A stretch of 64,000 bases of DNA from Candidatus Iainarchaeum sp. (GCA_018304425.1 JAGVWE010000006.1:3175-67174), one strand, 5' to 3'. Positions 1,047 through 60,364 are shown, numbered from the stretch's first letter. Numbers and translations are program-made. The notes: generated from the letters alone by a model not told the origin.

Positions 1047-1490
1047 ATGGCATTGGTTGAGGGCGCAAGTCTGAAGCACATCCAGGTTGAAGGCGTTATC
1101 AGCGGAATGGACTTCGAGGACGGGGTCGTAATTGTCCAGGGCCCTGACGAGAAATACTTGAACAGCATCCTGGCCTTGTGCAAGCGCCGCTTCAACCAGT
1201 TCATGGTGGTTTCCAAGCAGAACCCCGCGGCAGCGGTGGAAGCGCTGCCCGTGCGCGAGATGACACACATCCTGACGGATGATGTGGAAGTAAAGGAGAA
1301 ATGCTCCATCCACTTCTCGGGTCCGGTGCACGCGGAATTCGAGTTCAGCGAGCAGGCCGGCATCCTGGCAGTCAACTTCACCAAGAAAGAGCTGGGTTCC
1401 TCCGGCAAGAAGGCAGGCGCGCCCCCCTCTGACTGGCTGGGCGGCCTCACGAAGAAGAAAGAGGAAAAGCCGGCCGCGCCCACGGCCTGA
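1047..1490 (+). CDS. Hypothetical protein (147 aa) with Lys/Glu-rich C-terminal tail
   Basis: Clean ORF with no recognisable motif. Preceded by a TATA-like element and followed by a T5 run. Confidence 0.45.
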   Translation: MALVEGASLKHIQVEGVISGMDFEDGVVIVQGPDEKYLNSILALCKRRFNQFMVVSKQNPAAAVEALPVREMTHILTDDVEVKEKCSIHFSGPVHAEFEFSEQAGILAVNFTKKELGSSGKKAGAPPSDWLGGLTKKKEEKPAAPTA

Positions 1491-1528: not shown

Positions 1529-2503
1529 ATGAGGCAAATCCTGGTCACGGGTGGCGCGGGCTTCATTGGCAGCAACTTCATCCGCTACTTGATGCAGGCA
1601 CAGCCCGGCATCCGCGTGGTGAACCTCGACAAGCTGACGTATGCGGGCAACAAGGACAACCTGCGGGACCTCGAACGAAACCCCCGCTACCGGTTCATCA
1701 AAGGCGATATATGCCTCCGGTACGCCGTAAAACAGGCGATTAAGGGGTGCGATGCGGTCATCAACTTCGCGGCGGAGAGCCACGTGGACCGGAGCATCCA
1801 CGACCCCATGCCCTTCGTGCGCACCGACATCCAGGGAACCCTGAACCTATTGGAGGAAGCCAGGACGCACAAGGTGGAACGATTCATTCAAATCTCGACC
1901 GACGAAGTGTATGGCTCCGTGGAAAAGGGTTCTTCCAGGGAAACCGATGCCTTGAAGCCGCGCAACCCCTACAGCGCGTCCAAGGCTGGCGCGGACTTGC
2001 TGGCCCTGAGTTATTTCACGACCTATGGCTTGCCGGTCCTGGTCACGCGGAGCTCCAACAACTTTGGCCCCTACCAATTTCCGGAAAAAATCGTGCCCCT
2101 GTTCCTCACCAACCTCTTGCGGGGCCGGAAGGTTCCCTTGTATGGGGATGGCAAAAACGTGCGCGACTGGCTGTACGTCTTGGACAACTGCACGGCCATT
2201 GAAAGGGTGTTGCTGGACGGCAAGCCCGGGGAAGTCTACAATGTGGGGGGCGGGAACGAAGTCAAGAACATCGATTTGGCGCGGCGACTGCTGAAGGGGC
2301 TGGGCCTGGACGAGGAAAGGATTGAGTGGGTGAAGGACCGGCCGGGCCACGACCGGCGCTACTCGTTGGACAGTTCGAAGATTAAGAAGCTCGGCTGGAA
2401 GCCCGCGCACAAGTTCGGGGACGCGTTAAAGGCCACCATGGACTGGTACAAGGCCCATAATGCCTGGTGGGAGCCATTGGTGCACAAGGGGAGAAACGCG
2501 TGA
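1529..2503 (+). CDS. rfbB: dTDP-glucose 4,6-dehydratase
   Basis: MRQILVTGGAGFIGSNF N-terminus and a YSASKAG catalytic motif. Length 324 aa and overall RmlB-family features. Confidence 0.9.
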   Translation: MRQILVTGGAGFIGSNFIRYLMQAQPGIRVVNLDKLTYAGNKDNLRDLERNPRYRFIKGDICLRYAVKQAIKGCDAVINFAAESHVDRSIHDPMPFVRTDIQGTLNLLEEARTHKVERFIQISTDEVYGSVEKGSSRETDALKPRNPYSASKAGADLLALSYFTTYGLPVLVTRSSNNFGPYQFPEKIVPLFLTNLLRGRKVPLYGDGKNVRDWLYVLDNCTAIERVLLDGKPGEVYNVGGGNEVKNIDLARRLLKGLGLDEERIEWVKDRPGHDRRYSLDSSKIKKLGWKPAHKFGDALKATMDWYKAHNAWWEPLVHKGRNA

Positions 2504-3234
2504 AGGGCGTGATTTTGGCGGGGGGCACCGGTTCGCGGCTGATGCCGCTGACGAAAGTAACCAACAAGCACCTGCTGCCGGTGTATGACCGGCCGATGAT
2601 TTTTTATCCCCTGCAGACCTTGAAGGACGCGGGCATCAAGGACATTTTGGTGGTAACGGGAATGCATCACGCCAGCGCGGTGTCCGCGCTGCTGGGTTCC
2701 GGGAAAGAGTATGGCGTGCGGTTTTCCTACAAGCTGCAGAAAGAGGCGGGCGGGCTCCCGCAGGCCATCGCCTTGGCCGAGGACTTCGTCGGCGGAGGCA
2801 AATTCGTGTCCATCAACGGCGACAACCTCTTGTTCGAGAACATCAAGCCCTTCGTCAAGAAATTCGCGAAAGGGCGGGAACAGGCCCGCATCCTGCTGGC
2901 GAAAACCACGCGCGAAGAGGCGAAGAAGGCCGGGGTGGCCGTGTTCAAGCGGGGAAAGATTGTCGACCTGGTCGAGAAGCCGAAGGACCCGCCCACGAAC
3001 TGGGTGAGCATTGGCGTGTATATGTATGGCCCCGATGTCTTTGACATTATCCGGACGCTGAAGCCGTCCAAGCGCGGGGAGCTGGAGATAACGGACGTGA
3101 ACCGCGCCTATTTGGCGCGCGGGACGCTGAAGTACGACCGGCTCCGCAAGGGCTGGATGGATGCCGGAACGATTGACGAGCTGTGGCGGGCGAACAGGGT
3201 CATGCGGGAATTGACGCGTAAAGCCCGCCAATAG
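2500..3234 (+). CDS. Sugar-1-phosphate nucleotidyltransferase (short-form glucose-1-phosphate thymidylyltransferase-like)
   Basis: GTG at 2500 overlaps the rfbB stop in a GTGA arrangement. VKGVILAGGTGSRLMPLT is the G-x-G-T-R-L nucleotidyltransferase signature. About 245 aa. The track ORF 2467..3234 is the same frame. Confidence 0.8.
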   Translation: MKGVILAGGTGSRLMPLTKVTNKHLLPVYDRPMIFYPLQTLKDAGIKDILVVTGMHHASAVSALLGSGKEYGVRFSYKLQKEAGGLPQAIALAEDFVGGGKFVSINGDNLLFENIKPFVKKFAKGREQARILLAKTTREEAKKAGVAVFKRGKIVDLVEKPKDPPTNWVSIGVYMYGPDVFDIIRTLKPSKRGELEITDVNRAYLARGTLKYDRLRKGWMDAGTIDELWRANRVMRELTRKARQ

Positions 3235-3333
3235 ACGCAATGAAAGGGTTTTACTGGTACAATGGTCGAAGAAAAATAATAAGTATATATAGGGGTAGGC
3301 CGTTATCTTAGTAGAACAAGGGGAGCTTGCAGG

Positions 3334-4785
3334 ATGAGACTCAAGGTTTTGACGCTTAATCCGCCGTTTTTTCCCAAGTACTCGCGGGAATCGCGCTCGC
3401 CTTCGGTGACCAAGGGCGGCACGACCTATTACCCGATGTGGCTCGCGTATGCCACGGGCGTGCTGATGAAGGAAGGCTTCAACACCCGGATGGTGGATGC
3501 CGCGGGGGCCTGCAAGACCAAGGAAGAGGTAACGGACATCATCCGGCACATGAAGCCCGATTACATCGTCACCTACACCTCGACGGGTTCGGTGGTGAAC
3601 GACGCGGAATACATCCAGAGCGTGAAGGATGAGGGCCTGGACTTTTACTCGGTGTTCGTGGGGCCGCACGCGACCGCGACCCCGGTGGAGACCCTGAAAC
3701 TCAATGACGCCATGGACGCGGTTGCGCGAAGCGAGTTCGACTACATCGTGCGCGACCTGGCGTTCGAGCTGGAAAAGGGCCAGCCGGACTTGTCAAAGGT
3801 CCGGGGCCTCAGCTTCAAGGGCTCGGACGGAAAAATCAGGCACAACGAGCCCATGGACCCCATCGAGAACCTGGATGAGATCCCCTTCGTGTCCAAGGTC
3901 TACAAGCGGTTCCTGAACATCTGGGATTACTTTTACTCGGCCAACCTGTATCCGGAAGTGCAGATTGTCACGGGCCGGGGCTGCCCGTATAGGTGCACGT
4001 TCTGCCACTGGCCGCAGACCATGACCGGGAGAAAGTTCCGGACGCGCTCCATCGAAAACGTGATGGACGAGTTCGACTACATCGAGAAGACCTTTCCGGG
4101 CCTGGGCGAGGTGTTTTTGGAGGATGACACGTTCACGCAGGACCGCAAGCGCGTCAAGGAATTCTGCGAGGCGAAGGCCAGGCACGGCAACGGGCTGGTG
4201 TGGAGTTGTAACGCGCGCGCGGACGTGGACTTGGAGACCTTGAAGGCCATGAAAACCGCGAACTGCCGGCTGGTCTGCGTGGGCATCGAGTCCGGCGTCC
4301 AGGAAGTCCTGAACAACGTCAAGAAGGGCACGACCGTGGAGGGCATCCGCAAGTTTTTCAAGAACACCAAGGAAGCCAATGTCCTGGTGCACGGCTGCTT
4401 CATGCTGGGCAACAAGGGCGACACCAAGGACACGATCAAGAAGACCATCGAGTTCGCGAAGGAGTTGAACCCGGACACGAGCCAGTTCTTTCCCTTGATG
4501 GTGTACCCGGGCACGGAAGCCTATGAGTGGGCCAAGGAACAGGGGCACCTGAAGACCAATGACTACGCGCAGTGGCTGAACGCGGAGGGAGGGCACAACA
4601 CCATCATCGATAGGCCGGGGTTGACGCACGAGGAACTCGTGCAGATGTGCAACGACGCGCGCACGGAATATTATTTCAGGCCCAACTACATGGCGACCAA
4701 GGTCAAGCAGGTGCTGACCCTGCCCATGGAAAGGCGCCGCATCCTCAAGGCGTTCCAGGTGTTCGTCAAGCAGTTGGGCAAGTAA
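3334..4785 (+). CDS. B12-binding (class B) radical SAM enzyme
   Basis: N-terminal Rossmann-like B12-binding region followed by VTGRGCPYRCTFCHWP (a CxxxCxxC motif) and a full radical-SAM core. 483 aa. Confidence 0.85.
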   Translation: MRLKVLTLNPPFFPKYSRESRSPSVTKGGTTYYPMWLAYATGVLMKEGFNTRMVDAAGACKTKEEVTDIIRHMKPDYIVTYTSTGSVVNDAEYIQSVKDEGLDFYSVFVGPHATATPVETLKLNDAMDAVARSEFDYIVRDLAFELEKGQPDLSKVRGLSFKGSDGKIRHNEPMDPIENLDEIPFVSKVYKRFLNIWDYFYSANLYPEVQIVTGRGCPYRCTFCHWPQTMTGRKFRTRSIENVMDEFDYIEKTFPGLGEVFLEDDTFTQDRKRVKEFCEAKARHGNGLVWSCNARADVDLETLKAMKTANCRLVCVGIESGVQEVLNNVKKGTTVEGIRKFFKNTKEANVLVHGCFMLGNKGDTKDTIKKTIEFAKELNPDTSQFFPLMVYPGTEAYEWAKEQGHLKTNDYAQWLNAEGGHNTIIDRPGLTHEELVQMCNDARTEYYFRPNYMATKVKQVLTLPMERRRILKAFQVFVKQLGK

Positions 4786-4840
4786 GCCGGTTTGAATCCT
4801 TCAACCCAAGCCTTTTATTCTCTTTTTCCCTAATGGGGGC

Positions 4841-6502
4841 GTGAAGCCCAAGCTCAAACCCATCCAAGCCGTTGCCCGCAAGGCCGGCCTCCCCCTTGCT
4901 TTTCTCGAGCCCTATGGCAGGGGCAAGGCCAAAATCGATTGGCGGGTGTTAAAGCGCTTGAAAGGCCGGAAGGACGGCAAGCTCATCCTGGTTTCCTCCA
5001 TGAACCCCACCCGCTTTGGAGAGGGAAAAACCGTGACCACTATCGGATTAGCGCAGGCGTTGGCGCGGCTGGGCAAGAAGGCCCTGATTTGCCTGCGGCA
5101 GCCCAGCATGGGCCCGGTGTTTGGCGTGAAGGGCGGGGCCACGGGTGGCGGGAAGTCGAAGGTCGAGCCCGCTGAAGACATTAATTTGATGTTCACGGGC
5201 GACATCGCCGCGGTCTCGGCAGCTGCGAACCTGTTGGCGGCCCTCATTGACAATCACTTGGCGCGCGGCAACAAACTGGGGCTGGACCCGGATCGGATTG
5301 CGTGGCCGCGCGCCCTGGACGTGAACGACCGCGCCTTGCGCGATATCACGGTGTGCCAGGGAACCAACGTGTGCGTGGAACACGAAAGCCATTTCGTGAT
5401 TTCCGCGGCCTCGGAGGTCATGGCGTGCCTGTGCCTGGCAAACGACTTGACGGAGTTGAAGGAGATGCTGGGAAGCATTGTGGTCGGTTACTCTCGGAAG
5501 GGAGGGACCGTGCGTGCGGTGCGCGCGCGGCAGTTGAAGGCGGCTGGGGCCATGGCGGCCATTCTCCGCGATGCCTTGAAGCCCAACCTCGTGCAGTCCA
5601 CGGAGGGCATACCTGCCTTCGTGCACGGAGGACCTTTCGCAAACATCGCGCACGGCACCAACTCGGTGCTCGCGACCCGGCTGGCGTTGAAGCTGGCCCA
5701 TGGAGGCCATGTGGTAACCGAGGCCGGCTTTGGCTCGGACCTGGGTCTGGAAAAGTTCATGGACATCGTTTCCAGGAAAGCCGGTTATAAGCCGGATTGC
5801 GTGGTTTTAGTGGCTTCGTTGAAGGCTTTGAAGCACCATGGCGGGGCTAGGGAACCGGAGAAACGGAATCAGGCGGCGCTGGAGCAGGGGTTTGCCAACC
5901 TCGAAAAGCATGTGGAGAACGCGGCCTTGTTCGGTTTGCCGTGTGTCGTGGCCATCAACCGCTTCCCGCTGGACTCCGCGCAGGAAACCGAGTGGGTCCG
6001 GGGAAAATGCGCCGCACTGGGCGTGGAAGCGGTTCCATCCAGGGTGTTCGCGGAGGGTGGAAGAGGTGGGGAGGAGTTGGCGCGCGCGGTGCTGAAGGCG
6101 GTGCAGCGACCAGGGCAGCGGCCTGGGAGGGCGCACGCCCTGTATTCCTTGCAGTGGCCGTTGAAGAAAAAAATCGAGGCCATTGCCACGCATGTGTATG
6201 GCGCTGGCAGGGTGACGTTTTCGGCGGAGGCACGCAGGGACTTGAAGCGGCTGGAGGCGCTCGGCTTTGGCCGGCTGCCCGTGTGCGTGTCCAAGACGCA
6301 GTACTCGTTGAGCGATGACCCTGAAAAACGGGGGAGGCCGCGCGGGTTTTCGCTGCGCGTGCGCGGGGCCCAGGTTTCGGCGGGAGCCGGCTTCGTCGTC
6401 GTGTACGTCGGTGACCTGATTTCCTTGCCGGGTCTGCCGGAAAAACCGGCCGCAGAAAGGATGGACGTCGACGAGAAAGGCGAGGTCACGGGCTTGTTTT
6501 AG
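4841..6502 (+). CDS. fhs: Formate--tetrahydrofolate ligase
   Basis: PTRFGEGKTVTTIGL P-loop, QPSMGPVFGVKGGATGGG and NLMFTGDI motifs are diagnostic of FTHFS. 553 aa with a GTG start. Confidence 0.9.
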   Translation: MKPKLKPIQAVARKAGLPLAFLEPYGRGKAKIDWRVLKRLKGRKDGKLILVSSMNPTRFGEGKTVTTIGLAQALARLGKKALICLRQPSMGPVFGVKGGATGGGKSKVEPAEDINLMFTGDIAAVSAAANLLAALIDNHLARGNKLGLDPDRIAWPRALDVNDRALRDITVCQGTNVCVEHESHFVISAASEVMACLCLANDLTELKEMLGSIVVGYSRKGGTVRAVRARQLKAAGAMAAILRDALKPNLVQSTEGIPAFVHGGPFANIAHGTNSVLATRLALKLAHGGHVVTEAGFGSDLGLEKFMDIVSRKAGYKPDCVVLVASLKALKHHGGAREPEKRNQAALEQGFANLEKHVENAALFGLPCVVAINRFPLDSAQETEWVRGKCAALGVEAVPSRVFAEGGRGGEELARAVLKAVQRPGQRPGRAHALYSLQWPLKKKIEAIATHVYGAGRVTFSAEARRDLKRLEALGFGRLPVCVSKTQYSLSDDPEKRGRPRGFSLRVRGAQVSAGAGFVVVYVGDLISLPGLPEKPAAERMDVDEKGEVTGLF

Positions 6503-6596
6503 GCGCACCGGAAATGCGGTTGGTTGCGACTTTTTAAAGGGGTGGTGGCATAGCCCATTGGCTGGCTCCGTTTCGCCTATGAGGAGGGAATAGGCT

Positions 6597-6973
6597 ATGC
6601 GGCGGATTTACCTGGACACGAACGTGTTCATCTCCTGGGTCCAAATAGAACTTGGAAAGGGATGGCGGGGGCTCTTTTCGGAAGCGGAATTATTCATGGA
6701 CAAAGTAAAGCCGGCGGAGATATTGTAGTGCTCTCAGACTGGTTTTTTGCCGAAGTTGAACGGGCGGGGTACTGGACCAGGCTGGAAGTATTGCACCATT
6801 TCGAGAAGAACGGCGTGAACGTAGAGATAGTTGAACCTAAAGCACAATTGAACGTAAGAGAATGGCAGAGGTTAGGCATTCCACGGTCTGATGCGGTACA
6901 CGCCGCAATTGCGGCGTATGCCCGATGCGATTGCCTCGTCACATTTAACGTCCGGGATTTCGAGCCAGCTTAA
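6597..6973 (+). pseudogene. PIN-domain (VapC-like) gene disrupted by a frameshift in a G-run
   Basis: ATG at 6597 encodes MRRIYLDTNVFISWV, a PIN N-terminus, and hits a stop after 44 codons. The remainder of the PIN domain (DIVVLSDWFFAEVER ... CLVTFNVRDF) continues in the +2 frame (track ORF 6662..6973). The frames switch at ggcggggg, positions 6664-6671. Confidence 0.5.
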
Positions 6974-7002
6974 AGCAGAATAAAGGTTTATGAGCCAAAA
7001 GA

Positions 7003-7305
7003 CTATTCGTAAACCCAACCCTTTTCCTTCATGTATTCCTTTGCCCATTTGTTGCGTTGGGCCTTGGTTGGTTTGCGGCCATTCCATCCCCTGGACCTTG
7101 CGATGGCTGCAAGCGCTTGAGCGGATTCATGGAGGGCTAACAGGCTGGGGTTATCCTTAATCAATTCAACATAGTTTTTCCGGATGGAATCCTTAATGAA
7201 CTCGCTGCGGGAAGAATACAATTTGGATCGTGCAATGAGGTCATCCAGCGTGCGCGCGTAATCGGCGTTCACGGCAACCGTCAGCATCTTCGTCTTCCCC
7301 GCCAT
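7003..7305 (-). CDS. Ribbon-helix-helix (CopG-family) DNA-binding protein
   Basis: KMLTVAVNADYARTLDDLIARSKLYSSRSEFIKDSIR has the beta-strand, helix, helix pattern of RHH antitoxins and regulators. 100 aa. Convergent with the PIN pseudogene. Confidence 0.5.
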   Translation of the reverse strand: MAGKTKMLTVAVNADYARTLDDLIARSKLYSSRSEFIKDSIRKNYVELIKDNPSLLALHESAQALAAIARSRGWNGRKPTKAQRNKWAKEYMKEKGWVYE

Positions 7306-7456
7306 GATAACCTGTTAATAACAGGCTATTAAAGCCCTTTCGGTCGGGTTTTAAGGCCGCGAACCGCCTGTTCTTCCAGGATTGTACCAAACCCTTATTA
7401 TTTAAGGCTTCGCCAAGGAGAGTATGAAAGGCGTTTAACGGGTTCTAGGTGCTTGA

Positions 7457-8434
7457 ATGGGCTTACAGGCGAGCGTCATCATCCCGGTCTACAACGGGGC
7501 GGAAACCATTGCGGCCTGCATCGACTCGGCGTTGAAGCAGGACTTCAAGAGCCGGTACGAGGTCATTGTCGTCGACGACGGCAGCACGGACCAGACCGGG
7601 GAAATCGTGGAAGGCTTTGGCCGAAAAGTCAAACTGATTTCCCAAAAGAACCGGGGGCCCGCGGCTGCGCGCAACGCGGGCGCGAGGGCGGCAAAAGGCG
7701 AGTTCATCGTCTTCATGGACGACGACTGCCAGGCCGACAAGCATTGGCTGGCGGAAATGCTGTGGCCCTTTGAGAGCCCGGAAGTCGTGGGCGTCCAGGG
7801 CCGGTACAAGAACCGGCAACGCGAAATCGTGGCACGGCTCATCCACTTGGAGATAGCGGAACGGTATGAGAAGCTGCGCCAGCAACGGTTTGTCGACCAC
7901 ATTGGAACTTATTCGGCTGCCTACCGGAGGGAAACCTTTTTGAAGTGCAAGGGCTTCGACGAAAAGTTTTCGATTGCCTCCGGCGAAGACATTGACCTGA
8001 GTTACCGCCTCGCGGAAAAGGGGTTCAAGCTGGTGTTCAACTGGAATGCCGTGGTGTGGCACCAACACCCTACCTCTGCCTGGCACTACTTTAAGGTCAA
8101 GTTTTGGCGGGCCTACTGGCGCGTGCGGATGTACAAGAAACACAAACGGAAAATCGTGCAGGATTCCTATACCTCGCAGAACGTTAAACTGCAGATTGGC
8201 CTCTTTTACGTGTTTTTAATCGGCCTGGCAGGGCTTTTTTTCACGCAAAAGGCCTTGATAGTCGTGGCCCTGACGGCTTTGGCCTGGTTCCTGTCCATTA
8301 CCAAGTTCTGGGCCTATGCCCTCGGAAAAGACCCCCTGGTTGGGCTTATAACCCCGGTATTCCTGGCCATTAGGACCCTGGTGTTTGGCGTGGGCTTCGC
8401 CTATGGCGTGCTCCGGGAAGGGGTTCTTGGATGA
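7457..8434 (+). CDS. Family 2 glycosyltransferase with C-terminal transmembrane segments
   Basis: SVIIPVYNGAETIAACIDS, VVDDGSTD and FMDDDC are GT-A/GT2 DxD-type motifs. The C-terminal third is hydrophobic. Confidence 0.85.
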   Translation: MGLQASVIIPVYNGAETIAACIDSALKQDFKSRYEVIVVDDGSTDQTGEIVEGFGRKVKLISQKNRGPAAARNAGARAAKGEFIVFMDDDCQADKHWLAEMLWPFESPEVVGVQGRYKNRQREIVARLIHLEIAERYEKLRQQRFVDHIGTYSAAYRRETFLKCKGFDEKFSIASGEDIDLSYRLAEKGFKLVFNWNAVVWHQHPTSAWHYFKVKFWRAYWRVRMYKKHKRKIVQDSYTSQNVKLQIGLFYVFLIGLAGLFFTQKALIVVALTALAWFLSITKFWAYALGKDPLVGLITPVFLAIRTLVFGVGFAYGVLREGVLG

Positions 8435-9545: not shown

Positions 9546-10286
9546 GTGAAAGGGGATGGCATGAAAGGAAAAGCCTGCTTCATTTTGCCGACCTACAATG
9601 AACGGGAAAACGTTGGCAGCGTGGTGCGCGGCGTTTTCGGGGAATGCAAGGCATTGGGCGTCGAGGCCACTGTGCTGGTCGTGGACGACCACAGCCCGGA
9701 CGGCACGGCGGTTGAAGTCGTGAAGCTCCAGCGTTCGTTTCCCCAACTGAAGCTCCTGCAGCGGCCGGCCAAGGAAGGGCTGGGCAAAGCCTATGTTGCC
9801 GGCTTCAAATGGGCATTGGCGAACACGGACTGCGACGTGTTGTTCGAGATGGACGCGGACGGCTCGCACCACGCCGCTTACCTCAAGGACTTCTTCGCGA
9901 AACTGGCGGAAGGCAACGACGTCGTGGTGGGTTCGAGGTACATGCCGGGGGGAAGGCACGAGCAGAGCCCCCTGCACCGCACGCTCATCAGTTACGGCGC
10001 GAATTATCTCATCAAGGCTTTGCTGGCCCTGCCGCTGACGGACGTAACTTCAGGGTACCGCGCCATCCGCCGGGGCGCGCTGGAAAAGCTGGACTTGAAT
10101 GCGTTCAGGTCAAATGGGTATGAGTTCCAACTCGAGCTGCTGCACAAGCTCCATCATTCGGGCGCGCGCATCGGGAAAACCCCGATTGTGTTCACGCCGC
10201 GCGCCAGGGGAAGGTCGAAGATGACGTTCGGGGACATGGCCTCGTTTCTTTGGCTGGCCCTTCGGTTGTGGTTGAACCGCAACTGA
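9546..10286 (+). CDS. Polyprenol/dolichol-phosphate hexosyltransferase-like GT2 (DPM1 family)
   Basis: CFILPTYNERENV, VVDDHSPDGT and DADGSH match the DPM1/AglD-like GT2 signature. 246 aa soluble-type. An alternative ATG start lies at 9561. Confidence 0.85.
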   Translation: MKGDGMKGKACFILPTYNERENVGSVVRGVFGECKALGVEATVLVVDDHSPDGTAVEVVKLQRSFPQLKLLQRPAKEGLGKAYVAGFKWALANTDCDVLFEMDADGSHHAAYLKDFFAKLAEGNDVVVGSRYMPGGRHEQSPLHRTLISYGANYLIKALLALPLTDVTSGYRAIRRGALEKLDLNAFRSNGYEFQLELLHKLHHSGARIGKTPIVFTPRARGRSKMTFGDMASFLWLALRLWLNRN

Positions 10287-11426
10287 CTACTCCTTGGCGG
10301 CAGAAAGCACCGATGCCGCACGCAGGAACTTGGGAAGCACGGCCTCAAGCGCCTTCACCTCACGCCCAGGGAGGGCATCGGAAACAAACAGGCATTCCTC
10401 TTTCACGTCAAATGGATTGTAGCCGTGCATGCCTTTCACCGGCCCGTGGTCGAAGAAGTTGGGGGACAGCACGCGGCCCGGCGAGACGCAGAAGAACTCG
10501 TGGCCGGCCTCGGGCACGCGGTCGAGTTGGAGCGCATTTTTTTCGCGGGTGGACAGGAAGCGACCTCCCTCGACGCCGTTGAAAGCCTCGAAAAGGGCGT
10601 TCCGCTGCGCCTCATCGTTTACCCAAAACCGGGCCATGGTGGAGTCGAGGAAATGCTTGACGCCGTGTAGGCGTTGGAGCGGCTCCCCAATATCGGTTGG
10701 ACCGGTTACCGGGACCATGCCGTGGTCCGACCAGAGGAGGAAGGGCGCGCCTTCTTTTTGCGCGCGGGAAACCAGGCGTTCAATGAGGGCGTCCTGCGCG
10801 CGAAGGGTGGAAGCGAGGGCATCGGGGTCGGGGCCGAGGGCGTGGCCGGAGTGGTCCAGGTCCCAGAAGTGGAAGAAGTAAACATCCTTGTCCAGGGAGA
10901 GGAGCCGTTCGGCGGTGCGGGCGCGTGCGGCGTCGGTGGTGGCCGAGAATTCGAGGGAAACGCCCTGCTCGGTGCCGATGACCGGCCAGTTGTGGCAGAC
11001 GAAGGAGGTGCCTTGGACACGCAGGGAGTCGAAAACGGTGGGCACGGGGAGCGAGCCTGGCTCGGAAATGAATCTTTCCTGGCTGAGCGAGAAGCCGCGC
11101 GCTTTGTTGAGGCCGATGAAGGGCACGACGTTGGTGTGGCCTGCGTAGAAACGCTGGAGGCTGAAGTAGTAGGCGTCAAGCGGCCGCGGCAGGAAGGCGG
11201 AGACGATGCCGCGTATTTTTTCCGGGCCGTTGGCGTAGACGTTGAGTTGGCGGTGCTCGGCAAGCGTCTTACCCGAGTAAAAAGTGGCTGGCACGTTGGC
11301 GTAACCGAAGGGCTTGGGGACCGAGCCCAGGCCGTGCCCGTCGAGGAGGGATTGAAGGAACGGCATGCGCTGCCGCGAAAGGTAGGAAGCGTCAAGGGCA
11401 TCCATCCAGAGGATGAGGGCTTTCAT
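10287..11426 (-). CDS. Alkaline-phosphatase-superfamily enzyme (type I phosphodiesterase / nucleotide pyrophosphatase family)
   Basis: N-terminal WMDALDASYL...ATFYSGKTLAEHRQL and a WDLDHSGHALGPD metal-ligand motif. No sulfatase C/S-x-P-x-R motif. Last gene of a coupled minus-strand operon. Confidence 0.6.
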   Translation of the reverse strand: MKALILWMDALDASYLSRQRMPFLQSLLDGHGLGSVPKPFGYANVPATFYSGKTLAEHRQLNVYANGPEKIRGIVSAFLPRPLDAYYFSLQRFYAGHTNVVPFIGLNKARGFSLSQERFISEPGSLPVPTVFDSLRVQGTSFVCHNWPVIGTEQGVSLEFSATTDAARARTAERLLSLDKDVYFFHFWDLDHSGHALGPDPDALASTLRAQDALIERLVSRAQKEGAPFLLWSDHGMVPVTGPTDIGEPLQRLHGVKHFLDSTMARFWVNDEAQRNALFEAFNGVEGGRFLSTREKNALQLDRVPEAGHEFFCVSPGRVLSPNFFDHGPVKGMHGYNPFDVKEECLFVSDALPGREVKALEAVLPKFLRAASVLSAAKE

Positions 11427-12307
11427 GGGCGTTTCCTCCCAATTACGTAGAAGTGGTGGCTAAGCAGGTATTTGAGGGCGCGTGGCAGGGCCGCTTCAAA
11501 GGCCAAAAGCTGGTCCATGGGATGCCGGCGGGCAAGCAACGCCTCGTTGCCGGCGGGAAGCGCGTCCCACACCCAGGCCTTGGCCTGCTGCCGGCCGAAA
11601 AGGAACTTTATTTTCCCGCGGGTGTGCATGTCGAAGGTATCAAACCAGGGGCAGGTGTCAAAGAAACCGGAGTCAACGATTTCAAGGCCCGCCTGCTTGA
11701 AAGCACGCAGGAGGCCACCAGGCCGCATCCATTCAAAGTAGCCGTGATCCCATGCCTGGCCGTTGGCGGCGTGATAGAACCGGTGGATGAAGTAGCCGAT
11801 ATTCCAGGCATTCTGGTTGGCGACCAACACGTATTTTCGGGAAACACGCGCCATTTCGGTAAGGAGATCCGGGGCGTTGTGAAAGTGTTCGAACAGGCAG
11901 TAATTGAAAACCAGGTCAAACGAGTGGTCTTCGTAGGGAAGGTGGGTGAGGGGCGGCTGCAGGGCATCGAATTTTGCCTTTCTTTTGAGGCCCAGCTTGT
12001 TCCAGAACCTGGCGCTATAGTCCAGGAGTTTTCGGCTGGGGCTTGCCACGGTTACGTTGGCGCCATTGCGTGCAAACAAAACGCCGCTGGCGCCTGAAAC
12101 CCCCATGAGGCCGTCGGCTGGGGCCTCCAGAACGTTGTCAACGTCGTTGGCAATGGTTTTCCACAGGATGCGGTTGAAGGAAAGCCGCTCAAAGGCGATG
12201 CCAATGCCTTCGTCGAAGTCCTGGGGCAGGCTGGGCAGGTTACGGTCCAGGAAACCCTGCAGGAGTTTTTCGTCCCGATTCATAAGAGGTCTCTCTCCAT
12301 ATCCCAT
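11423..12307 (-). CDS. Class I SAM-dependent methyltransferase-like protein (paralog A)
   Basis: GVSGASGVLFA is a motif-I-like glycine loop. A YVLVANQNAWNIGYFIHRFYH block is shared with the gene at 14611..15384. ATGA-type 4-nt overlap with the downstream gene. Confidence 0.65.
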   Translation of the reverse strand: MGYGERPLMNRDEKLLQGFLDRNLPSLPQDFDEGIGIAFERLSFNRILWKTIANDVDNVLEAPADGLMGVSGASGVLFARNGANVTVASPSRKLLDYSARFWNKLGLKRKAKFDALQPPLTHLPYEDHSFDLVFNYCLFEHFHNAPDLLTEMARVSRKYVLVANQNAWNIGYFIHRFYHAANGQAWDHGYFEWMRPGGLLRAFKQAGLEIVDSGFFDTCPWFDTFDMHTRGKIKFLFGRQQAKAWVWDALPAGNEALLARRHPMDQLLAFEAALPRALKYLLSHHFYVIGRKRP

Positions 12308-13287
12308 CGGACGGTGTCATTTAGGGCCTGCTGGAAGGGTATAACGGGTTTATAGCCCAGGAGGCGCTCGGCTTTGGAGGAAGAGTAAACATGGGGGGTA
12401 GTAAAATAGCGCACCGTGTTCACGCCCATGCGGGGAAACCCGGGCAACAGTCGGGCGATAAAGCTCATGGGATACGCGAGGAGGTAGGCGACGAATACAG
12501 GCAGGAAAAGGAGCCTGGCTTTTTTGCCAAGGGCTACTGCAATGGCTTGGAGGTAGGACCGCAACGCGGGTTTTTCCTGGCCTGAAAGGATGAACGTCTG
12601 GTTGCACGCGGCGCGGTTGCCTGGAACGCTGGCCATGCCCCTGACGAGGTCGCGGACGTCAACCAAGTCGAATTTGTTTTTGCCGTTGCCGAAGACCACG
12701 AAGCCCCCCCGGCTAAGGGCCTTGAAAATATTTTTCCGGTTGGAGGAGTCGCGGGGGCCACACACAATGGAGGGACGGAGAATGCAATAACGCGTCTTCG
12801 TCGGCGCGCAAAGGGCTTTCACGAGTTTTTCGGCCTCGGCTTTGGTGCGCGCATACTTGGTTTCCGGTTGGTAGGGCGCGCGTTCGTCAAGCCCGTTGGC
12901 GGGCGTTGGGCCAAGGACGTCAACGGTGCTGCAGAAGACAAACAATTCGACCCCTGCCTTGATGGAGGCCAGTGAGAGGTTGCGCGTTCCCTCGACATTG
13001 GCTTGCCAGAATGCCTGCTCCGGGTAACGCCCTTCGTCGGACAAGGCCGCCAGGTGGAAGACTACTTGACAGCCGGCCACCAGCAGGGCCAGTGCATTCG
13101 CATCATCCAAGTCGCCGGCCACGGTTTGCACGCCGAGGGCTTCCAGGGCCTGCAAGCGGCTGGATGGCCTGGCGAGGCAAACCACGTCATGGCCGCGGCT
13201 ACGCAGTTCTTCGACCAGGTAACCGCCAATGAAGCCAGTTCCACCAGTTACTGCGACTTTCACGCCATCACGCAGTCCTTTAGCCAT
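12280..13287 (-). CDS. NAD-dependent epimerase/dehydratase with hydrophobic C-terminal segment
   Basis: The track ORF 12280..13404 was trimmed to internal Met-40. That gives an MAKGLRDGVKVAVTGGTGFIGGYLV Rossmann start at 13287. The upstream 39 codons overlap the neighbouring gene. Confidence 0.75.
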   Translation of the reverse strand: MAKGLRDGVKVAVTGGTGFIGGYLVEELRSRGHDVVCLARPSSRLQALEALGVQTVAGDLDDANALALLVAGCQVVFHLAALSDEGRYPEQAFWQANVEGTRNLSLASIKAGVELFVFCSTVDVLGPTPANGLDERAPYQPETKYARTKAEAEKLVKALCAPTKTRYCILRPSIVCGPRDSSNRKNIFKALSRGGFVVFGNGKNKFDLVDVRDLVRGMASVPGNRAACNQTFILSGQEKPALRSYLQAIAVALGKKARLLFLPVFVAYLLAYPMSFIARLLPGFPRMGVNTVRYFTTPHVYSSSKAERLLGYKPVIPFQQALNDTVRWDMERDLL

Positions 13288-13298
13288 CGAAACCCTTT

Positions 13299-14609
13299 TT
13301 AGACGAGTTTTTGGAAGAAGTAAAGCACGTAGGCATCGCAGAAGGCCTTGTCGGCTTCCAGCCAGTCTTCCCTGGCAGAGCCGTGGCCCGCGGGCAGGGG
13401 GCATACTTGGCTTATTTTTTTGCGGGCGAGGGAAAGCTGCCGGAGGTCAAGCCCGCCCTCGGCTTGGATGCAGGAAAGGAGGAGGGGTAGGGCCGAAAAC
13501 AACACAAGGTCAGGGGTCGCCGAATTCAGGAGCACACGCGGATGGAACACGCCATGGAACCGGAGGAGGCGCAGGAAGAACAGGCAATTCAGGTAGAAAC
13601 GCGCGAATGGCAGCAGCAGGCTGGCGGGCAGGGTGAAACCCAGACGATGGCGACAGGCAGCGGAAAGGTACGGTTCAAAGTAGGGGGCCTGAACGCGGCG
13701 GGCAATCGCATCCGATAGTTGTTCAGGCGAGGACATCGAGAGGCCCAGCCACTGGTTGGTGAAGCAAAGCGTTGCCTGCAGAATGCAGTCGCGGGCCTCG
13801 AAGAAGAAGGCTGGAGCGTCGAGTTTTTGCGTGAAGTCCGTGTTGTCCTTGAAGGCAACCACCTGGTTCACGCGTTTTGGCAGGTCAGGAAGCTTTTTGG
13901 CGAGTCCGGGAAATTCTTTGGCATAAGATGCGGCAAATGCCTTGGCGCGTGCGGCATGGGTGGACGCGTACGCGCCCTTCAGGAGCAGGAGGGCTTCCGA
14001 AGCCCCCAGAAAGGCCTTGGAACCCAGCAACAGCAGGCCACGTTTCTCGTTGGGGGTGGGGGGCCTCTCAAAGAATTCAATGGAAAAGTATTCGGCAAGC
14101 ATGGCCATGCGGTTGAGCAACAAGCGGAAGCCTTCGGCAAGCGGGAGGGCCCGCGCGGAAAAAGAGGGCAAGTGGTCGAGGAGGTTCACGCCCGCAATGA
14201 CCGTCGAGGCCTCTCTGAGGTCGTAGTACCTGACAAGGGGCAGCACACGCGGGAGGTCGGCTTCGGAGAGGGTTTTCACGTCCAGGTAAAACGTGTTCGC
14301 GTATTTTTCGCGGTCGAAGAAATAGAAGGGCACTCCGTGACTGGGCAGGCCGAGTTCGCTGACGAGCGCATTGGCGATGTGGTTGAGCTCGGGTTCGCTG
14401 ACGCGCGCGTTCGTCACCACGTACAAGTCGAAGTCGTTGAGGGGAAGGATTTTTCCGTTTTCGCGCGTCCAACCGCCTTCGCCGCGGCCGTAGCCCCCCG
14501 CAAGAATGACTGAAACCGCGCCAGGCACGCGTTGAAGGAGCCCTTTTCCGACTGCCTGAACCAGTCGCGCGATTTCCTTGTCGGCTTGGGGGTCTTTCAC
14601 GAACGGCAT
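13299..14609 (-). CDS. Pol-beta-superfamily nucleotidyltransferase-fold protein, about 436 aa, uncharacterised
   Basis: SVILAGGYGRGEGG ... LPLNDFDLYVVTN matches the [GS]-x(n)-DxD minimal NTase signature. A long helical C-terminal region follows. The start at Met-15 of the track ORF removes the overlap. Confidence 0.45.
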   Translation of the reverse strand: MPFVKDPQADKEIARLVQAVGKGLLQRVPGAVSVILAGGYGRGEGGWTRENGKILPLNDFDLYVVTNARVSEPELNHIANALVSELGLPSHGVPFYFFDREKYANTFYLDVKTLSEADLPRVLPLVRYYDLREASTVIAGVNLLDHLPSFSARALPLAEGFRLLLNRMAMLAEYFSIEFFERPPTPNEKRGLLLLGSKAFLGASEALLLLKGAYASTHAARAKAFAASYAKEFPGLAKKLPDLPKRVNQVVAFKDNTDFTQKLDAPAFFFEARDCILQATLCFTNQWLGLSMSSPEQLSDAIARRVQAPYFEPYLSAACRHRLGFTLPASLLLPFARFYLNCLFFLRLLRFHGVFHPRVLLNSATPDLVLFSALPLLLSCIQAEGGLDLRQLSLARKKISQVCPLPAGHGSAREDWLEADKAFCDAYVLYFFQKLV

Positions 14610-15386: not shown

Positions 15387-16469
15387 TCAACCAATAACGA
15401 CTTCGGCGGCCACGCTGGCCAGGGTCTTCAAATCGCAGAGCATCGTGGTGTACGCGGCGTTGGCGAGCGGGCAAAAGCATTCCTTGTCCTTGATGCTCTT
15501 GCGGAGCTTGTCTGCCACGGCGTTGAACCAGATGCGTGGAAAATCGTATCCGTGGTCGCGGAGGTTTCCCATGGACTGGGCCCTGACGCAGCAGGTCCAG
15601 ACGTCGCCCTTCCAGTTGATTTGAGCGGAGGCAACCCCCGCCATGCAGGGAATGGCCTGGGTGCGCTTGCGGAGCACTTCCTTGACCATGGCGTAATAGC
15701 GCTTGCGGAAGGCCTGGGTGACCTTTGAGGTCGCCTTGAAGCTTCGGTCGGCGAGCCGGTCCAGCAAGTGGTCGATGGCCGCAGCATATTCCTCTGCGGA
15801 GGGCGTGAGGCCGAAGCCGACCGTGCCGAGTTCGGGGCGTTCCTCCGCGATTTCCGTGATGTAGGAATCCGGTTCGAGGGCCAGCAAGCCGTCACATATC
15901 CTTGGGAATTCCTTGACGTTGTGCTTGGAGATGACCGTGTGGATGCCGATTTCGAGGTTCTTGAATTCCTTTTTGAGTTCCTTGAGGCCGGCCAGGGTTT
16001 CCATGGACTTCTCCCAGTTCCCGGGCACGCCGCGGATGCGGTCGTGCTGCTCGCGCAAGCCATCCAGGGAGAGGTTGATGATTATTTTGGGGTCCGGGCA
16101 GGATTCCAGGATTTTCCGCGTCTTTTCGAGGATGGCCTTGGAGAGGATGCCATTGGTGGGGATGTTGATGATGCCGGGCCGGCAGTGCCTGCACACGCTC
16201 TGGCACATTTCGGGGAGGTCCTTGCGCATGAAGGGCTCCCCGCCGCTCATGGTGACCCAGAACAGGTTGTCGCCAATGGATTGAAAGGTTTTGTCCCATT
16301 CCTCCAGGGAGAGGTCCTGGGTGCCCTTGTTCTTCCAGATGTTGCAGGTCAAACACTTCGAGTTGCAGTAGCCCAGCGTGCTCACGGTCAGGTTAAGGGG
16401 CAGGGTCCTGGGCCAGCCAAGGGCGTGAAAGGCTTTCAAAGCCGGAATCCGCGAAACAGGTTCCTTCAT
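15387..16469 (-). CDS. Radical SAM enzyme with C-terminal SPASM/twitch-like Cys clusters
   Basis: CNSKCLTCN is a CxxxCxxC motif. C-terminal CMAGV...WTCCVRAQ...ECFCPLANAAY auxiliary cysteines follow. The start at Met-12 gives an ATGA overlap with the GT2 stop at 16466..16468. Confidence 0.8.
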   Translation of the reverse strand: MKEPVSRIPALKAFHALGWPRTLPLNLTVSTLGYCNSKCLTCNIWKNKGTQDLSLEEWDKTFQSIGDNLFWVTMSGGEPFMRKDLPEMCQSVCRHCRPGIINIPTNGILSKAILEKTRKILESCPDPKIIINLSLDGLREQHDRIRGVPGNWEKSMETLAGLKELKKEFKNLEIGIHTVISKHNVKEFPRICDGLLALEPDSYITEIAEERPELGTVGFGLTPSAEEYAAAIDHLLDRLADRSFKATSKVTQAFRKRYYAMVKEVLRKRTQAIPCMAGVASAQINWKGDVWTCCVRAQSMGNLRDHGYDFPRIWFNAVADKLRKSIKDKECFCPLANAAYTTMLCDLKTLASVAAEVVIG

Positions 16470-17344
16470 GGAAGTTCCTTGGTAGATTGTAGGGCTTGCC
16501 AATTAAAAGGGTTTTTATGGCCCAAACAAAGGCGTATGCGTGCAAGCAAGCGGGTGAGACCCTCCAAAAAAGCGCACCCCAAGAGCAAGGGGGCTTCCAA
16601 GGGTCTTTCGGCCAGCAAACCATGGACGGCCTGGAAAAGGGGCGCAAAGCGGGTGGTGGAAGGCTGGTATCCGCGCCTGGCCAGCCAGTAGTGGCCCAAA
16701 TGAATGCGAACGCGTTGAGCCAAAATCTCCGATAACGTGTCCGGCCCCTTGTTCCGGACAATGGCTTGCGGGGCATAGGCGACCTTCAAGCCCCTGGCCT
16801 GGAAAAAGGACTCCAGCCAGGCCTCGTCCACCGCCGTATCCGGGGGAAGCTGCTTGACTTGGTTTCGGAAGCAAATCAGTTCCCCTGCCTTGGGCTGCAG
16901 CAGGGAAACCCGGTGATGCATTTCCCACAGGAACCAGGCAAAGTAACCTGAAAGCGTCCGGCGGGGGTTGACCGGAACCGGATGCGCTCCCACCAGGCCC
17001 ACGGCCGGGTTCGCCAGGCAGTCCAGCATCCCGGCAATCGCTCCCGGTTCAAGGAGGAGGTCGGCGCCTGCCAGGCAAACGATGTCGCCGGCACACCGGG
17101 AGAGGCCGAGGTTGACCGCACTGGCTTTTCCGAGTTTCTCCGGCTGGACCACCAACCCGATTTTTGGGTTGGCGGCTTGCGCACGCCGGACTTCCTGCAC
17201 GGTGTTGTCCGTGCAGCCGCTGGCCACGACCACGATTTCTTTCAAGGCATGCGGGCCCAGCCGCTGGGCCGCCACGCTCGCAAGCAGTCGGTAAATGTTC
17301 TTGCCCTCATTGTAGGCGGGAACAACAATGGAGAGGGTAGTCAT
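16466..17344 (-). CDS. Family 2 glycosyltransferase
   Basis: LSIVVPAYNEGKNI and VVVASGCTDNT match the GT2 signature. First gene of the coupled operon. Confidence 0.85.
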   Translation of the reverse strand: MTTLSIVVPAYNEGKNIYRLLASVAAQRLGPHALKEIVVVASGCTDNTVQEVRRAQAANPKIGLVVQPEKLGKASAVNLGLSRCAGDIVCLAGADLLLEPGAIAGMLDCLANPAVGLVGAHPVPVNPRRTLSGYFAWFLWEMHHRVSLLQPKAGELICFRNQVKQLPPDTAVDEAWLESFFQARGLKVAYAPQAIVRNKGPDTLSEILAQRVRIHLGHYWLARRGYQPSTTRFAPLFQAVHGLLAERPLEAPLLLGCAFLEGLTRLLARIRLCLGHKNPFNWQALQSTKELP

Positions 17345-20401: not shown

Positions 20402-21022
20402 ATGGAGTTCGAGTTCAAGGGCAACCGGTTGAAGTTCGACAAGGAACTGTCCAACCTTGACAAGCTGGTCTTAAAGTTCGTGAAGGTGCTGGACGCCCAG
20501 CACGTGGACTACGTCATCATCTCCGGCTACATCGCTATACTGTTCGGCCGCAGCCGCAACACGGAAGACGTGGACTTGTTCGTAGAGGAGATGCCCAAGG
20601 AACAATTCATCCTGTTGTGGAATGCCTTGGGCGAGGCCGGTTTCGAGTGCATCAACGCTGGGGCTGCTGAGAGCGCTTATGAGGAGTACCTAAAAGACCA
20701 GCTCGCCATCCGGTTCGCGGTCCTGGGGACGATCGAGCCTAATTTCGAACTTAAATTCCCGAAAACCAAGTATAACCGCTATTCGCTGAAAAACAAGCTT
20801 TTTGTCGAACTGAATGGTGAAGAATTGCGCACTTCGGAACTGGAGCTGCAAATCGCGTTCAAGCTCTATCTGGGAGCGGACAAGGATTTGGAGGATGCAC
20901 GGCATCTTTACAAGGTCTTTAAAGAACATCTAAACATAGGTTTAATGCAGGCCCACATCCAGGCGTTGGGCGTGGCAAAGCAAGCCGAGCGGATATTATG
21001 GAAAGACAAATACCAAAGCTGA
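20402..21022 (+). CDS. Minimal nucleotidyltransferase-fold protein (paralog of 23377..24018)
   Basis: YVIISGYIAILFGRSRNTEDVDLFV matches the GS...DxD NTase motif. About 206 aa from the internal Met. Confidence 0.5.
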   Translation: MEFEFKGNRLKFDKELSNLDKLVLKFVKVLDAQHVDYVIISGYIAILFGRSRNTEDVDLFVEEMPKEQFILLWNALGEAGFECINAGAAESAYEEYLKDQLAIRFAVLGTIEPNFELKFPKTKYNRYSLKNKLFVELNGEELRTSELELQIAFKLYLGADKDLEDARHLYKVFKEHLNIGLMQAHIQALGVAKQAERILWKDKYQS

Positions 21023-21219
21023 CCCCGAAGGACCGCCTGGAGATGGCGAAAGAGAAGCAGCGCAACATGCGACAGCGGATGGAATTCGTCGACCTGCACG
21101 CGGAATGGCTCCGGAAGACCCCCAACAAGGTGTGGAGCAAACAGCAGAAGGTCCTGCTGGACCCGTGAAAGCCGCTTTGCGAAGATTTTAAACGCTTTCC
21201 AAGGTAAATTCATTGCTGA

Positions 21220-22119
21220 TTGGAGGATTGGAACGTGAAGAAACCGTTGAAGGGAACCTGGAAGTTGAAGGAGGGCCTGGCCCAGATGCTGAAGGGCGGC
21301 ACCATCATGGACGTCGTGAACGCCGAGCAGGCGCGCATCGCCGAGAAGGCGGGAGCCTGCGCGGTCATGGCGCTTGAAAGGGTTCCGGCAGACATTCGCG
21401 CGGCCGGCGGGGTGGCGCGGATGGCCGACCCCAAGAAAATCAGGGAAATCATCCAGGCCGTGAGCATCCCAGTCATGGCCAAGTGCCGGATCGGGCATTT
21501 CGTCGAGGCCCAGGTGTTGCAGGAACTCGGCGTTGACTTCATCGACGAGTCGGAAGTGCTGACGCCGGCCGACGAGGCCCATCACGTGGACAAAAAGCGG
21601 TTTACCGTGCCCTTTGTCTGCGGGGCCCGAAATCTGGGGGAAGCCCTGCGGCGCATGAACGAGGGCGCGGCCATGATTCGAAGCAAGGGCGAGGCCGGCA
21701 CCGGCAACGTCGTGGAAGCGGTGCGGCACGTGCGCGCGATCAACGAGCAGGTTGACTTGTTGAAGCACATGGGCCTGCACCAGTTGGAAGAGCTGGCGCG
21801 GAATTACCGGGTGCCCCTGGAACTGGTGGAAAGGACGCGGGAAGCCGGGAGGCTGCTGGTCGTGAACTTTGCGGCCGGAGGCATCGCGACTCCCTCGGAT
21901 GCCGCGTTGATGATGCAACTGGGGTGCGACGGAGTTTTCGTGGGTTCGGGGATTTTCAAGGCCAAAAACCCCCAGAAGATGGCGAAGGCCATCGTGCTGG
22001 CAGTAACCCACTACAAGGACGCCAAGGTCTTGGCGAGGGTCTCCGAGGGCTTGGGCGAGGCCATGAAGGGCCAGGAGATTTCCAAGCTCGATGTGCGGCT
22101 GCAGGAACGAGGCTGGTAG
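21220..22119 (+). CDS. pdxS: Pyridoxal 5'-phosphate synthase, synthase subunit
   Basis: LKGGTIMDV and [23 protein letters not shown] are canonical PdxS/SNZ motifs. 299 aa. Confidence 0.95.
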
Positions 22120-22120
22120 C

Positions 22121-24868: not shown

Positions 24869-24869
24869 G

Positions 24870-27403: not shown

Positions 27404-27629
27404 ATAAAGCCGGAAACTGTTTTAAAGGATTTGGTGGCTTTATCCGTCGTGAAAGCGCATCAGATCGTGTTGGTCTTGGCCGCCTTCCTCCTCTTGGCTT
27501 ATGCCCATTTCGTTTTGACGCCAACGGAGCCAGGAGCCTCCTACAAGGCGGTTTCCTTGAACCCCAAGAAAACCACGTTGGAGCGTTGCCAGGGCCCGGG
27601 CCCCGAGTGCAACCTCGTGGAAGTCGAAG

Positions 27630-28835: not shown

Positions 28836-28890
28836 GCTGCATTATTGGGAGGTTTTACATTTAAAAAGCCAAGGGCACGAAAGCCACGCG

Positions 28891-43012: not shown

Positions 43013-43017
43013 GAAAA

Positions 43018-49924: not shown

Positions 49925-49962
49925 CCACTGGAAACTTGGCAAAATTGTATTGCTTAAATTGG

Positions 49963-60343: not shown

Positions 60344-60364
60344 GTGCCAACGAGGTGTAATGCC

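Follow-up and report, generated by a model that had tools for sequence, protein, structure and literature searches.

The stretch of DNA analysed here, called the window throughout, is a 64-kb segment of a metagenome-assembled genome (MAG) of a DPANN archaeon (Candidatus Diapherotrites archaeon, or Candidatus Iainarchaeum sp.), whose proteins are deposited as MBS3063562–MBS3063598. Nearly all of its genes are glycan genes, with many glycosyltransferases of family 2 (GT2) and family 4 (GT4), PMT_2 proteins, a flippase, an aminotransferase and a radical S-adenosyl-l-methionine (SAM) enzyme of the SPASM type, and the window is part of a surface/N-glycan super-locus of this archaeon. Our subject is a pair of adjacent genes near its 5′ end. 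The first encodes a second radical SAM enzyme (hereafter rSAM), which carries an N-terminal B12-binding domain and belongs to a clade that is sister to HpnJ, the radical SAM enzyme of the hopanoid cyclitol ether pathway; the second, fhs, encodes a formate–tetrahydrofolate (THF) ligase (Fhs). The pair is flanked by RmlB/RmlA-like genes on the 5′ side and by GT2/GT4 genes on the 3′ side. A sequence-only reading of the window had described this arrangement, with the B12 domain and the CxxxCxxC motif in rSAM, and matches to PF02310, PF04055, PF01268 and TIGR01181 bear it out. The features of the central region are as follows.

1529–2503, + strand: dTDP-glucose 4,6-dehydratase (RmlB); TIGR01181, 451 bits against a cutoff of 365
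2467–3234, + strand (start placed at 2500 by gene callers): short RmlA-like sugar-1-phosphate nucleotidylyltransferase (NTP-transferase); PF00483, 197 bits
3272–3292, + strand: A/T-rich TATA-like element, aaaaataataagtatatatag, read directly, about 40 nt 5′ of the rSAM start
3334–4785, + strand: B12-domain radical SAM enzyme (rSAM) of the HpnJ sister clade, MBS3063564.1; PF02310, PF04055
3982–4005, + strand: codons of the radical SAM cluster motif C217-x3-C221-x2-C224, invariant in 116 sequences
4813–4819, + strand: TATA-like TTTTATT, read directly, 22–28 nt 5′ of the fhs start codon, within the 55 bp that separate rSAM from fhs
4841–6502, + strand: formate–tetrahydrofolate ligase (Fhs), MBS3063565.1; PF01268, NF010030
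6597–6973, + strand: PIN/VapC-like remnant, frameshifted; the joined reading matches PF01850
7003–7305, − strand: small protein of the ribbon-helix-helix (CopG) type; PF01402, 24.8 bits
7457–8434, + strand: membrane-anchored GT2, the conserved partner of rSAM; PF00535, 135 bits
8431–9534, + strand: GT4 glycosyltransferase, the usual follower of this GT2; PF00534, PF13439

An identical gene order is present on 14 contigs from at least four independent groundwater metagenome assemblies; thus the placement of fhs is not an assembly chimera. The NTP-transferase reaches 217 bits against RmlA models, under their cutoffs of 320–360, so that its nucleotide specificity is uncertain. TATA-like elements lie 5′ of rSAM, of fhs and of the GT2 gene at 7457–8434, and the element at 3272–3292 would be the promoter of rSAM. 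Scans of the window with Rfam models and for tRNAs revealed no THF riboswitch, no cobalamin riboswitch and no RNA genes.

The rSAM gene product has 483 residues, and its public annotation is merely 'radical SAM protein'. Both domains pass their Pfam thresholds (B12-binding, PF02310, 40.3 bits against a cutoff of 32.1; Radical_SAM, PF04055, 77.6 bits against 29.5), and with the CxxxCxxC motif in the radical SAM core and the B12-binding domain N-terminal to it the protein is of class B. Cys217, Cys221 and Cys224 are invariant across the 116 homologues. In the AlphaFold2 model (predicted local distance difference test score, pLDDT, 93.5) the N-terminal domain is alpha/beta, and the model resembles the folds of TsrM, OxsB, TokK and CysS. 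The top solved match, over the full length and with a template modelling (TM) score of 0.74–0.78, is AprD4 (PDB 6FD2), which is bound to its sugar substrate paromamine; a sequence search of solved structures returned nothing close, with AprD4 on top at 89 bits. We note that three further cysteines, Cys315, Cys355 and Cys439, are invariant in the family and that Cys311 is at least 90% conserved (window positions ~4264–4650), whereas HpnJ has Leu or Thr at these positions. Cys311/Cys315 and Cys355 lie on predicted barrel strands. These family-specific cysteines could be hydrogen-atom donors or could form an extra metal site.

Among NCBIfam models, the HpnJ model TIGR03471 is by far the best match to rSAM (421.5 bits, full length), followed by BchE at 157 bits. 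Pairwise, rSAM is 36–37% identical to annotated HpnJ proteins of Paraburkholderia and Mycetohabitans over 478 residues (98% of the protein; E-value 1e-103, 306 bits), and 65 of the 105 residues that are invariant in the rSAM family (62%) are retained in three HpnJ sequences. In a neighbour-joining tree, the rSAM family together with a protein of Lawsonia forms the sister clade of HpnJ. The other enzymes compared score lower. A MoeK5-like enzyme, picked from the moenomycin-type cluster of pSCL4 by the synteny of its asparagine synthase and radical SAM genes, gives 127 bits at 25% identity; the sequences of the solved structures of TsrM, TokK, CysS, MgmA and OxsB give 24–55 bits; and methylase profile models, PhpK among them, give 31–124 bits (TsrM 31, HpnR 69, KedN5 73). 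The family model of AprD4 gives 103 bits. By these sequence scores, rSAM is closer to the non-methylase HpnJ than to any of the methylases compared (MoeK5-like, TsrM, TokK, CysS and MgmA). A closer kinship with the TsrM clade, which the sequence-only reading had proposed as a comparison, was not found.

The clade is large and widespread, and it is uncharacterised. Homologues 48–59% identical to rSAM were collected from 80 species-level genomes, which are mostly Iainarchaeia, including the complete AR10 genome, and otherwise belong to Desulfobacterota, Chloroflexota, Fibrobacterota/Chitinispirillia, WOR-3 and Planctomycetota. A homologue with 43% identity is encoded on the 27-kb plasmid 1 of the pig pathogen Lawsonia intracellularis (NC_008012.1, locus L092). 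It is surrounded by five class I methyltransferases, another radical SAM gene, GT2 genes and what appear to be heptose-pathway genes (SIS domain, GHMP kinase, HAD-IIIA), and this species could be a tractable organism in which to study the clade.

The neighbourhoods of these homologues were searched with the window proteins for 10 kb on each side of rSAM, and 1,199 open reading frames (ORFs) of the related loci were clustered. The cluster of the window GT2 at 7457–8434, with 59 homologues in total, supplies the first or second gene 3′ of rSAM in 57 of 76 loci; in nine further loci a different membrane GT2 (cluster c13) follows rSAM directly, and in 20 loci the second gene 3′ of rSAM is a GT4. 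On the other side, an RmlA-like NTP-transferase stands within two genes 5′ of rSAM in 33 of 77 loci, in most cases with RmlB before it; the RmlB homologues upstream of rSAM in many archaeal loci are 53–67% (mostly 59–67%) identical to that of the window. The window GT2 itself consists of a GT-A domain and hydrophobic stretches that fit two to three C-terminal transmembrane helices (residues 243–319). In addition, a 196-residue class I methyltransferase flanks rSAM in about 26 loci, and elsewhere the rSAM-adjacent slot is occupied by other proteins that resemble class I methyltransferases by eye. In a Chloroflexota MAG (locus L040) rSAM and a methyltransferase are fused into one protein of 792 residues (P0104). 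A search of the window for an ortholog of the 196-residue partner gave only distant class I methyltransferase matches, at 29% identity or less; the slot often held by the methyltransferase in relatives is here filled by fhs and a decayed toxin–antitoxin remnant. We also note a separate pair of a methyltransferase and a B12-domain rSAM paralogue in another Iainarchaeal locus (L089:14783–16863), so the pairing recurs.

The conserved module is [RmlB – RmlA-like NTP-transferase] – rSAM – [class I methyltransferase] – membrane GT2 – GT4. In Desulfobacterota the minimal unit is rSAM–GT2–phosphoglycosyltransferase. On a 719-kb Iainarchaeal contig the module adjoins AglB, an N-acetylglucosamine-1-phosphate transferase and Alg13/14 homologues, which marks that region as an N-glycosylation locus; a literature search turned up nothing on B12 radical SAM enzymes in archaeal N-glycosylation. 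Dozens of species keep rSAM in synteny with RmlB, NTP-transferase, GT2 and GT4, which upholds the earlier proposal that rSAM is a sugar- or glycan-tailoring enzyme, most likely one that modifies the sugar handled by the adjacent GT2.

Fhs, a protein of 553 residues, is a full member of its family (PF01268, 754 bits; NF010030, 734.5 bits against a cutoff of 652), with an intact P-loop GEGKT at residues 60–64 and about 200 alignment columns invariant with bacterial Fhs, and it falls short of the Pfam profile by about 10 N-terminal residues. Its occurrence in a surface-glycan locus is unusual, as the sequence-only reading had remarked: in none of the 80 other species is Fhs found within 10 kb of rSAM. 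Apart from the contigs of the window itself, only one sister lineage (L094) has the gene after rSAM; there rSAM and RmlB are 91% and 82% identical to those of the window and the N-terminus of Fhs begins 31 bp after rSAM. Outside this lineage the best matches to Fhs are 55–59% identical, and those that carry names are nearly all from Bacillota, with one from Atribacteria. The two nearest homologues on long contigs are surrounded by unrelated housekeeping genes, and in metagenome contigs of JGI the Fhs relatives reach at most 53% identity and have no glycan genes or rSAM beside them. A literature search found nothing on folate metabolism in Diapherotrites.

The G+C content at third codon positions and the codon use of fhs are those of its neighbours. 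Recent horizontal transfer is thereby ruled out, and the acquisition must be old. The TTTTATT in the 55-bp gap after rSAM suggests that fhs has a promoter of its own. On the 3′ side, the ~950 bp between fhs and the GT2 gene (6503–7456) have 50% GC against ~60% in the flanks. Within this interval, frame 1 of the PIN-like gene ends after 43 codons and the reading goes on in another frame; joined, the two parts cover the whole PF01850 profile at 21.3 bits, barely under the cutoff. The interval looks like a decayed toxin–antitoxin or mobile remnant that arrived with fhs.

Formyl-THF, the product of Fhs, is the donor used by sugar N-formyltransferases, and the earlier suggestion of N-formylated sugars would call for such an enzyme. 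That the window has none was noted at the time, and this holds up in the Pfam scan (no PF00551 in plausible ORFs of at least 200 residues) and in a six-frame tblastn search with the formyltransferase domain of ArnA (no match at E-values up to 0.1). The 6.7 kb upstream of the window were likewise without a formyltransferase. The sole case in about 80 loci is an archaeal MAG (L013:12200–12900), in which a PF00551 formyltransferase (49 bits) lies ~2.3 kb 3′ of the rSAM homologue.

Because fhs is absent from this position in 80 other species, has housekeeping relatives in unrelated contexts and is accompanied by no formyltransferase in the window, we regard it as a passenger. Fhs is probably, by sequence kinship, an ordinary bacterial-type gene of one-carbon (C1) metabolism lodged between rSAM and its GT2 partner; its transcription would start from a promoter of its own, and its role probably lies in general C1 metabolism and not in the glycan pathway. 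A functional pairing of rSAM with Fhs, like the N-formylated sugars hinted at in the sequence-only reading, is thus not supported: the insertion is lineage-specific, and Fhs clusters with housekeeping enzymes whose synteny elsewhere is unrelated to glycan genes, two of the features that this reading had itself listed as speaking for its refutation.

Our overall explanation, to which we give a probability of roughly 0.6, is that an HpnJ-sister rSAM operates in a conserved glycan module into which fhs has come as a passenger. The explanation starts from the observed gene identities, homology relations and synteny statistics, and adds a substrate, an order of steps, a type of reaction and promoters that we infer. 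The nucleotidyltransferase and the dehydratase would provide an NDP-(6-deoxy)hexose, which the membrane GT2 would load onto a lipid-linked intermediate. The 5′-deoxyadenosyl radical generated by rSAM would then take a hydrogen from the sugar and remodel it, and in many relatives the product would be O-methylated by the adjoining or fused methyltransferase. In the ancestor of the present lineage, fhs and the decayed PIN/ribbon-helix-helix remnant would have entered between rSAM and GT2.

As to what rSAM does to the sugar, we rank first, by analogy and at somewhat less than even odds, an HpnJ-type, non-methylating rearrangement of the carbon skeleton (ring contraction) of a lipid-linked sugar, on the strength of the sister relationship and the pairing with a membrane GT2. 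That the clade as a whole carries out a ring contraction like that of HpnJ or the calditol synthase Cds on a sugar of a glycan pathway is a speculative extension. Several observations weigh against our explanation. The score of rSAM is under the equivalog cutoff of the HpnJ model (421.5 versus 577.6 bits), and 40 of the 105 family-invariant positions differ in HpnJ, including Cys315, Cys355 and Cys439. The rSAM locus has no HpnK-type deacetylase, and a comparison of the partner GT2 with HpnI brought out no specific similarity; an orthologous HpnI–HpnJ pair is thereby ruled out here. The clade itself is uncharacterised and the enzyme with which we compare it, HpnJ, is known from genetics, so the argument proceeds by analogy. 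That class I methyltransferases so often accompany rSAM would suit a radical SAM enzyme of the methylation type just as well. A ring-contracted sugar is unable to act as a glycosyl donor, which limits where in the pathway the step can stand. Finally, the composition and codon use of Fhs fit those of its neighbours, and its adjacency to rSAM has lasted in two lineages, which would agree with a local role.

Next after rearrangement comes C-methylation, as the sequence-only reading had it: rSAM would be a cobalamin-dependent C-methyltransferase that places a methyl branch on a dTDP-deoxysugar or a glycan sugar, in the manner of GenK, GenD1 and MoeK5. Most characterised class B radical SAM enzymes are methylases, a published similarity network puts HpnJ near Fom3 and MoeK5, and RmlB and the NTP-transferase immediately precede rSAM. 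Its close association with class I methyltransferases, in one case by fusion, points to a methyl-rich glycan, and the window holds at least seven such methyltransferases. The scores run the other way, with 306 bits for HpnJ against 127 for the MoeK5-like enzyme, 31–124 bits for the TsrM, HpnR, KedN5 and PhpK models and 24–55 bits for the TokK, TsrM, CysS and MgmA structures, and among solved structures the fold of AprD4, a diol-dehydratase that acts on a sugar, comes closest. C-methylation is thus a possible activity, and we do not favour it. Less probable still, and making up the remainder, is another kind of radical reaction on a sugar, for example an AprD4-like dehydration or deoxygenation, an epimerisation, or the extension of an O-methyl group by the logic of CysQ/CysS, maybe without cobalamin. 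AprD4 as the best fold match in the PDB (TM score 0.74–0.78), with 103 bits for its family model, would agree with this, as would the recurring pairs of methyltransferase and B12-domain rSAM and the invariant Cys315 and Cys355 on barrel strands, which are absent from HpnJ and could donate hydrogen atoms. However, the identity to AprD4 is only 21–22%, and the B12-binding domain passes its Pfam threshold.

We consider it improbable that Fhs is tied to the locus after all, whether by supplying 10-formyl-THF for an N-formyl sugar, a C1 pool that regenerates SAM, or dTTP for dTDP-sugars. The gene lies on the same strand 55 bp after rSAM, in the slot that a methyltransferase holds in many relatives; its codon use is fully host-adapted, a second lineage (rSAM 91% identical) has kept the adjacency, the window carries at least seven SAM methyltransferases and two radical SAM enzymes, and locus L013 has its PF00551 gene 2.3 kb from rSAM. 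Yet the two lineages in which the genes adjoin are closely related, so that shared ancestry suffices as an explanation, and in 80 of 80 other species fhs is absent near rSAM. The window and the 6.7 kb upstream of it lack a formyltransferase, the nearest homologues of Fhs sit in unrelated contexts, fhs has its own TATA-like element, and its low-GC flank with a broken PIN gene is typical of inserted material. Metabolic support through C1 units for SAM or dTTP is without comparative support. We therefore retain the passenger reading of fhs, and the case is a caution: it shows how weakly a pathway link is supported when two genes are neighbours in one lineage only.

Further genes complete the 5′ part of the window, up to position 10286.

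1–962, + strand: NDP-sugar epimerase/dehydratase of the short-chain dehydrogenase/reductase (SDR) family; PF01370, 169 bits, and PF16363; start ~6 nt before the window
1047–1490, + strand: conserved, lineage-specific protein of 147 residues; no Pfam or NCBIfam match
9546–10286, + strand: AglJ/PpgS-like GT2 (polyprenyl-phosphate hexosyltransferase type); NCBIfam AglJ, 63 bits, and PpgS, 62 bits, both under cutoff

The full-length version of the epimerase, with 322 residues, is seen in locus L001. The 147-residue protein has an 80% identical counterpart in the sister lineage L094 and none in the other 80 loci, and the GT2 at 9546–10286 is the top ArnC-like match within the window.

Beyond these genes, the class I SAM methyltransferases of the window are at 11423–12307, 32639–33385, 35999–36958, 38048–38857, 49888–50640, 57938–58708 and 61447–62097; at 57938–58708 the real gene is the + strand ORF and not the minus-strand ORF that overlaps it. 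At least seven such enzymes in one 64-kb glycan region imply a heavily methylated glycan. The other radical SAM enzyme, with the SPASM domain (15387–16502, − strand, 371 residues), overlaps the end of a GT2 gene (16466–17344), and its top family matches are weak (AhbC/NirJ-like, at most 68 bits). An SDR at 12280–13404 (− strand) has as its top NCBIfam match HpnA, the hopanoid-associated sugar epimerase (177 bits, under cutoff), and is thus a second hopanoid-associated-like protein in the locus of the HpnJ-like rSAM. Between 30000 and 55000 the GC content drops from ~60% to 45–52% over a second glycan cluster, which holds the flippase (33396–34859), several GT4s, an AsnB-like amidotransferase (41120–43021) and a PMT_2 protein (43018–44691); the region may be a variable one or may have been gained by horizontal transfer. 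At 59396–62097 a GFO/IDH-type oxidoreductase and a DegT aminotransferase form a WbpB/WbpE-like amino-sugar pair, which is followed by a class I methyltransferase and not by an N-acyl or N-formyl transferase. Long ORFs of 287–577 residues without a Pfam match (in 20908–22428, 24038–25069, 26540–30189, 46968–48701 and 50742–52229), amid which lies an 811-residue protein with a Big_5 domain (30199–32634), may together with it be surface proteins or polymerases.

If the clade does carry out ring contraction, the protein-linked or surface glycans of many DPANN archaea and of several bacterial phyla would bear ether-linked carbocyclic (cyclitol) units, often O-methylated; we know of no report of a carbocyclic modification in N-glycans. 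An HpnJ-like activity would extend the conversion of sugar to cyclitol from two lipid head-group pathways, those of the hopanoid cyclitol ether and of calditol, to glycan assembly, in a large section of the archaea, most of it uncultured, and in several bacterial phyla, with the Lawsonia intracellularis plasmid as one instance. The clade would then also offer soluble, well-predicted orthologues for a first biochemistry of HpnJ-type enzymes.

Among known systems, the Fhs family (PF01268, NF010030) counts the window Fhs as a full member that is set apart by its DPANN host, by the distance to its relatives in other lineages (at most 59% identity) and by its glycan-locus setting. Sugar N-formylation systems of the ArnA, WbkC and VioF type (PF00551) would use its product, and their signature domain is found near rSAM in one of about 80 related loci and not in the window. 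AprD4, the radical SAM 1,2-diol dehydratase of apramycin biosynthesis, likewise acts on a sugar ring, but it comes from an actinomycete natural-product pathway and is 21–22% identical to rSAM; to our knowledge it has a B12-type domain and uses no cobalamin. The methyltransferases MoeK5, GenK, GenD1 and Fom3 share with rSAM the architecture of a B12 domain and a radical SAM core, and they act on sugars or on small molecules linked to nucleotides. The rSAM gene lies beside that of a nucleotidyltransferase, but its product is only 25% identical to the MoeK5-like enzyme, the one member of that group compared. The calditol synthase Cds of Sulfolobus acidocaldarius is a functional analogue by description only: it is a radical SAM enzyme of an archaeon, proposed to turn a lipid-linked hexose into a five-membered carbocycle, whereas its substrates are the membrane tetraether lipids of acidophiles. 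For Cds and HpnJ alike, reviews propose, on genetic grounds only, that a hydrogen is abstracted from the sugar and the ring of a lipid-linked hexose is contracted to a cyclitol. HpnJ itself resembles rSAM in domain architecture and length, is 36–37% identical to it and falls in the sister clade. Neither the window nor any of the 80 related loci showed the genes of a hopanoid neighbourhood (hpnI, hpnK, shc and others). Just as hpnJ adjoins the GT2 gene hpnI (and hpnK), rSAM adjoins the gene of a membrane GT2, but it does so in an archaeon, and in an N-glycan or surface-glycan locus furnished with NDP-sugar genes and methyltransferases.

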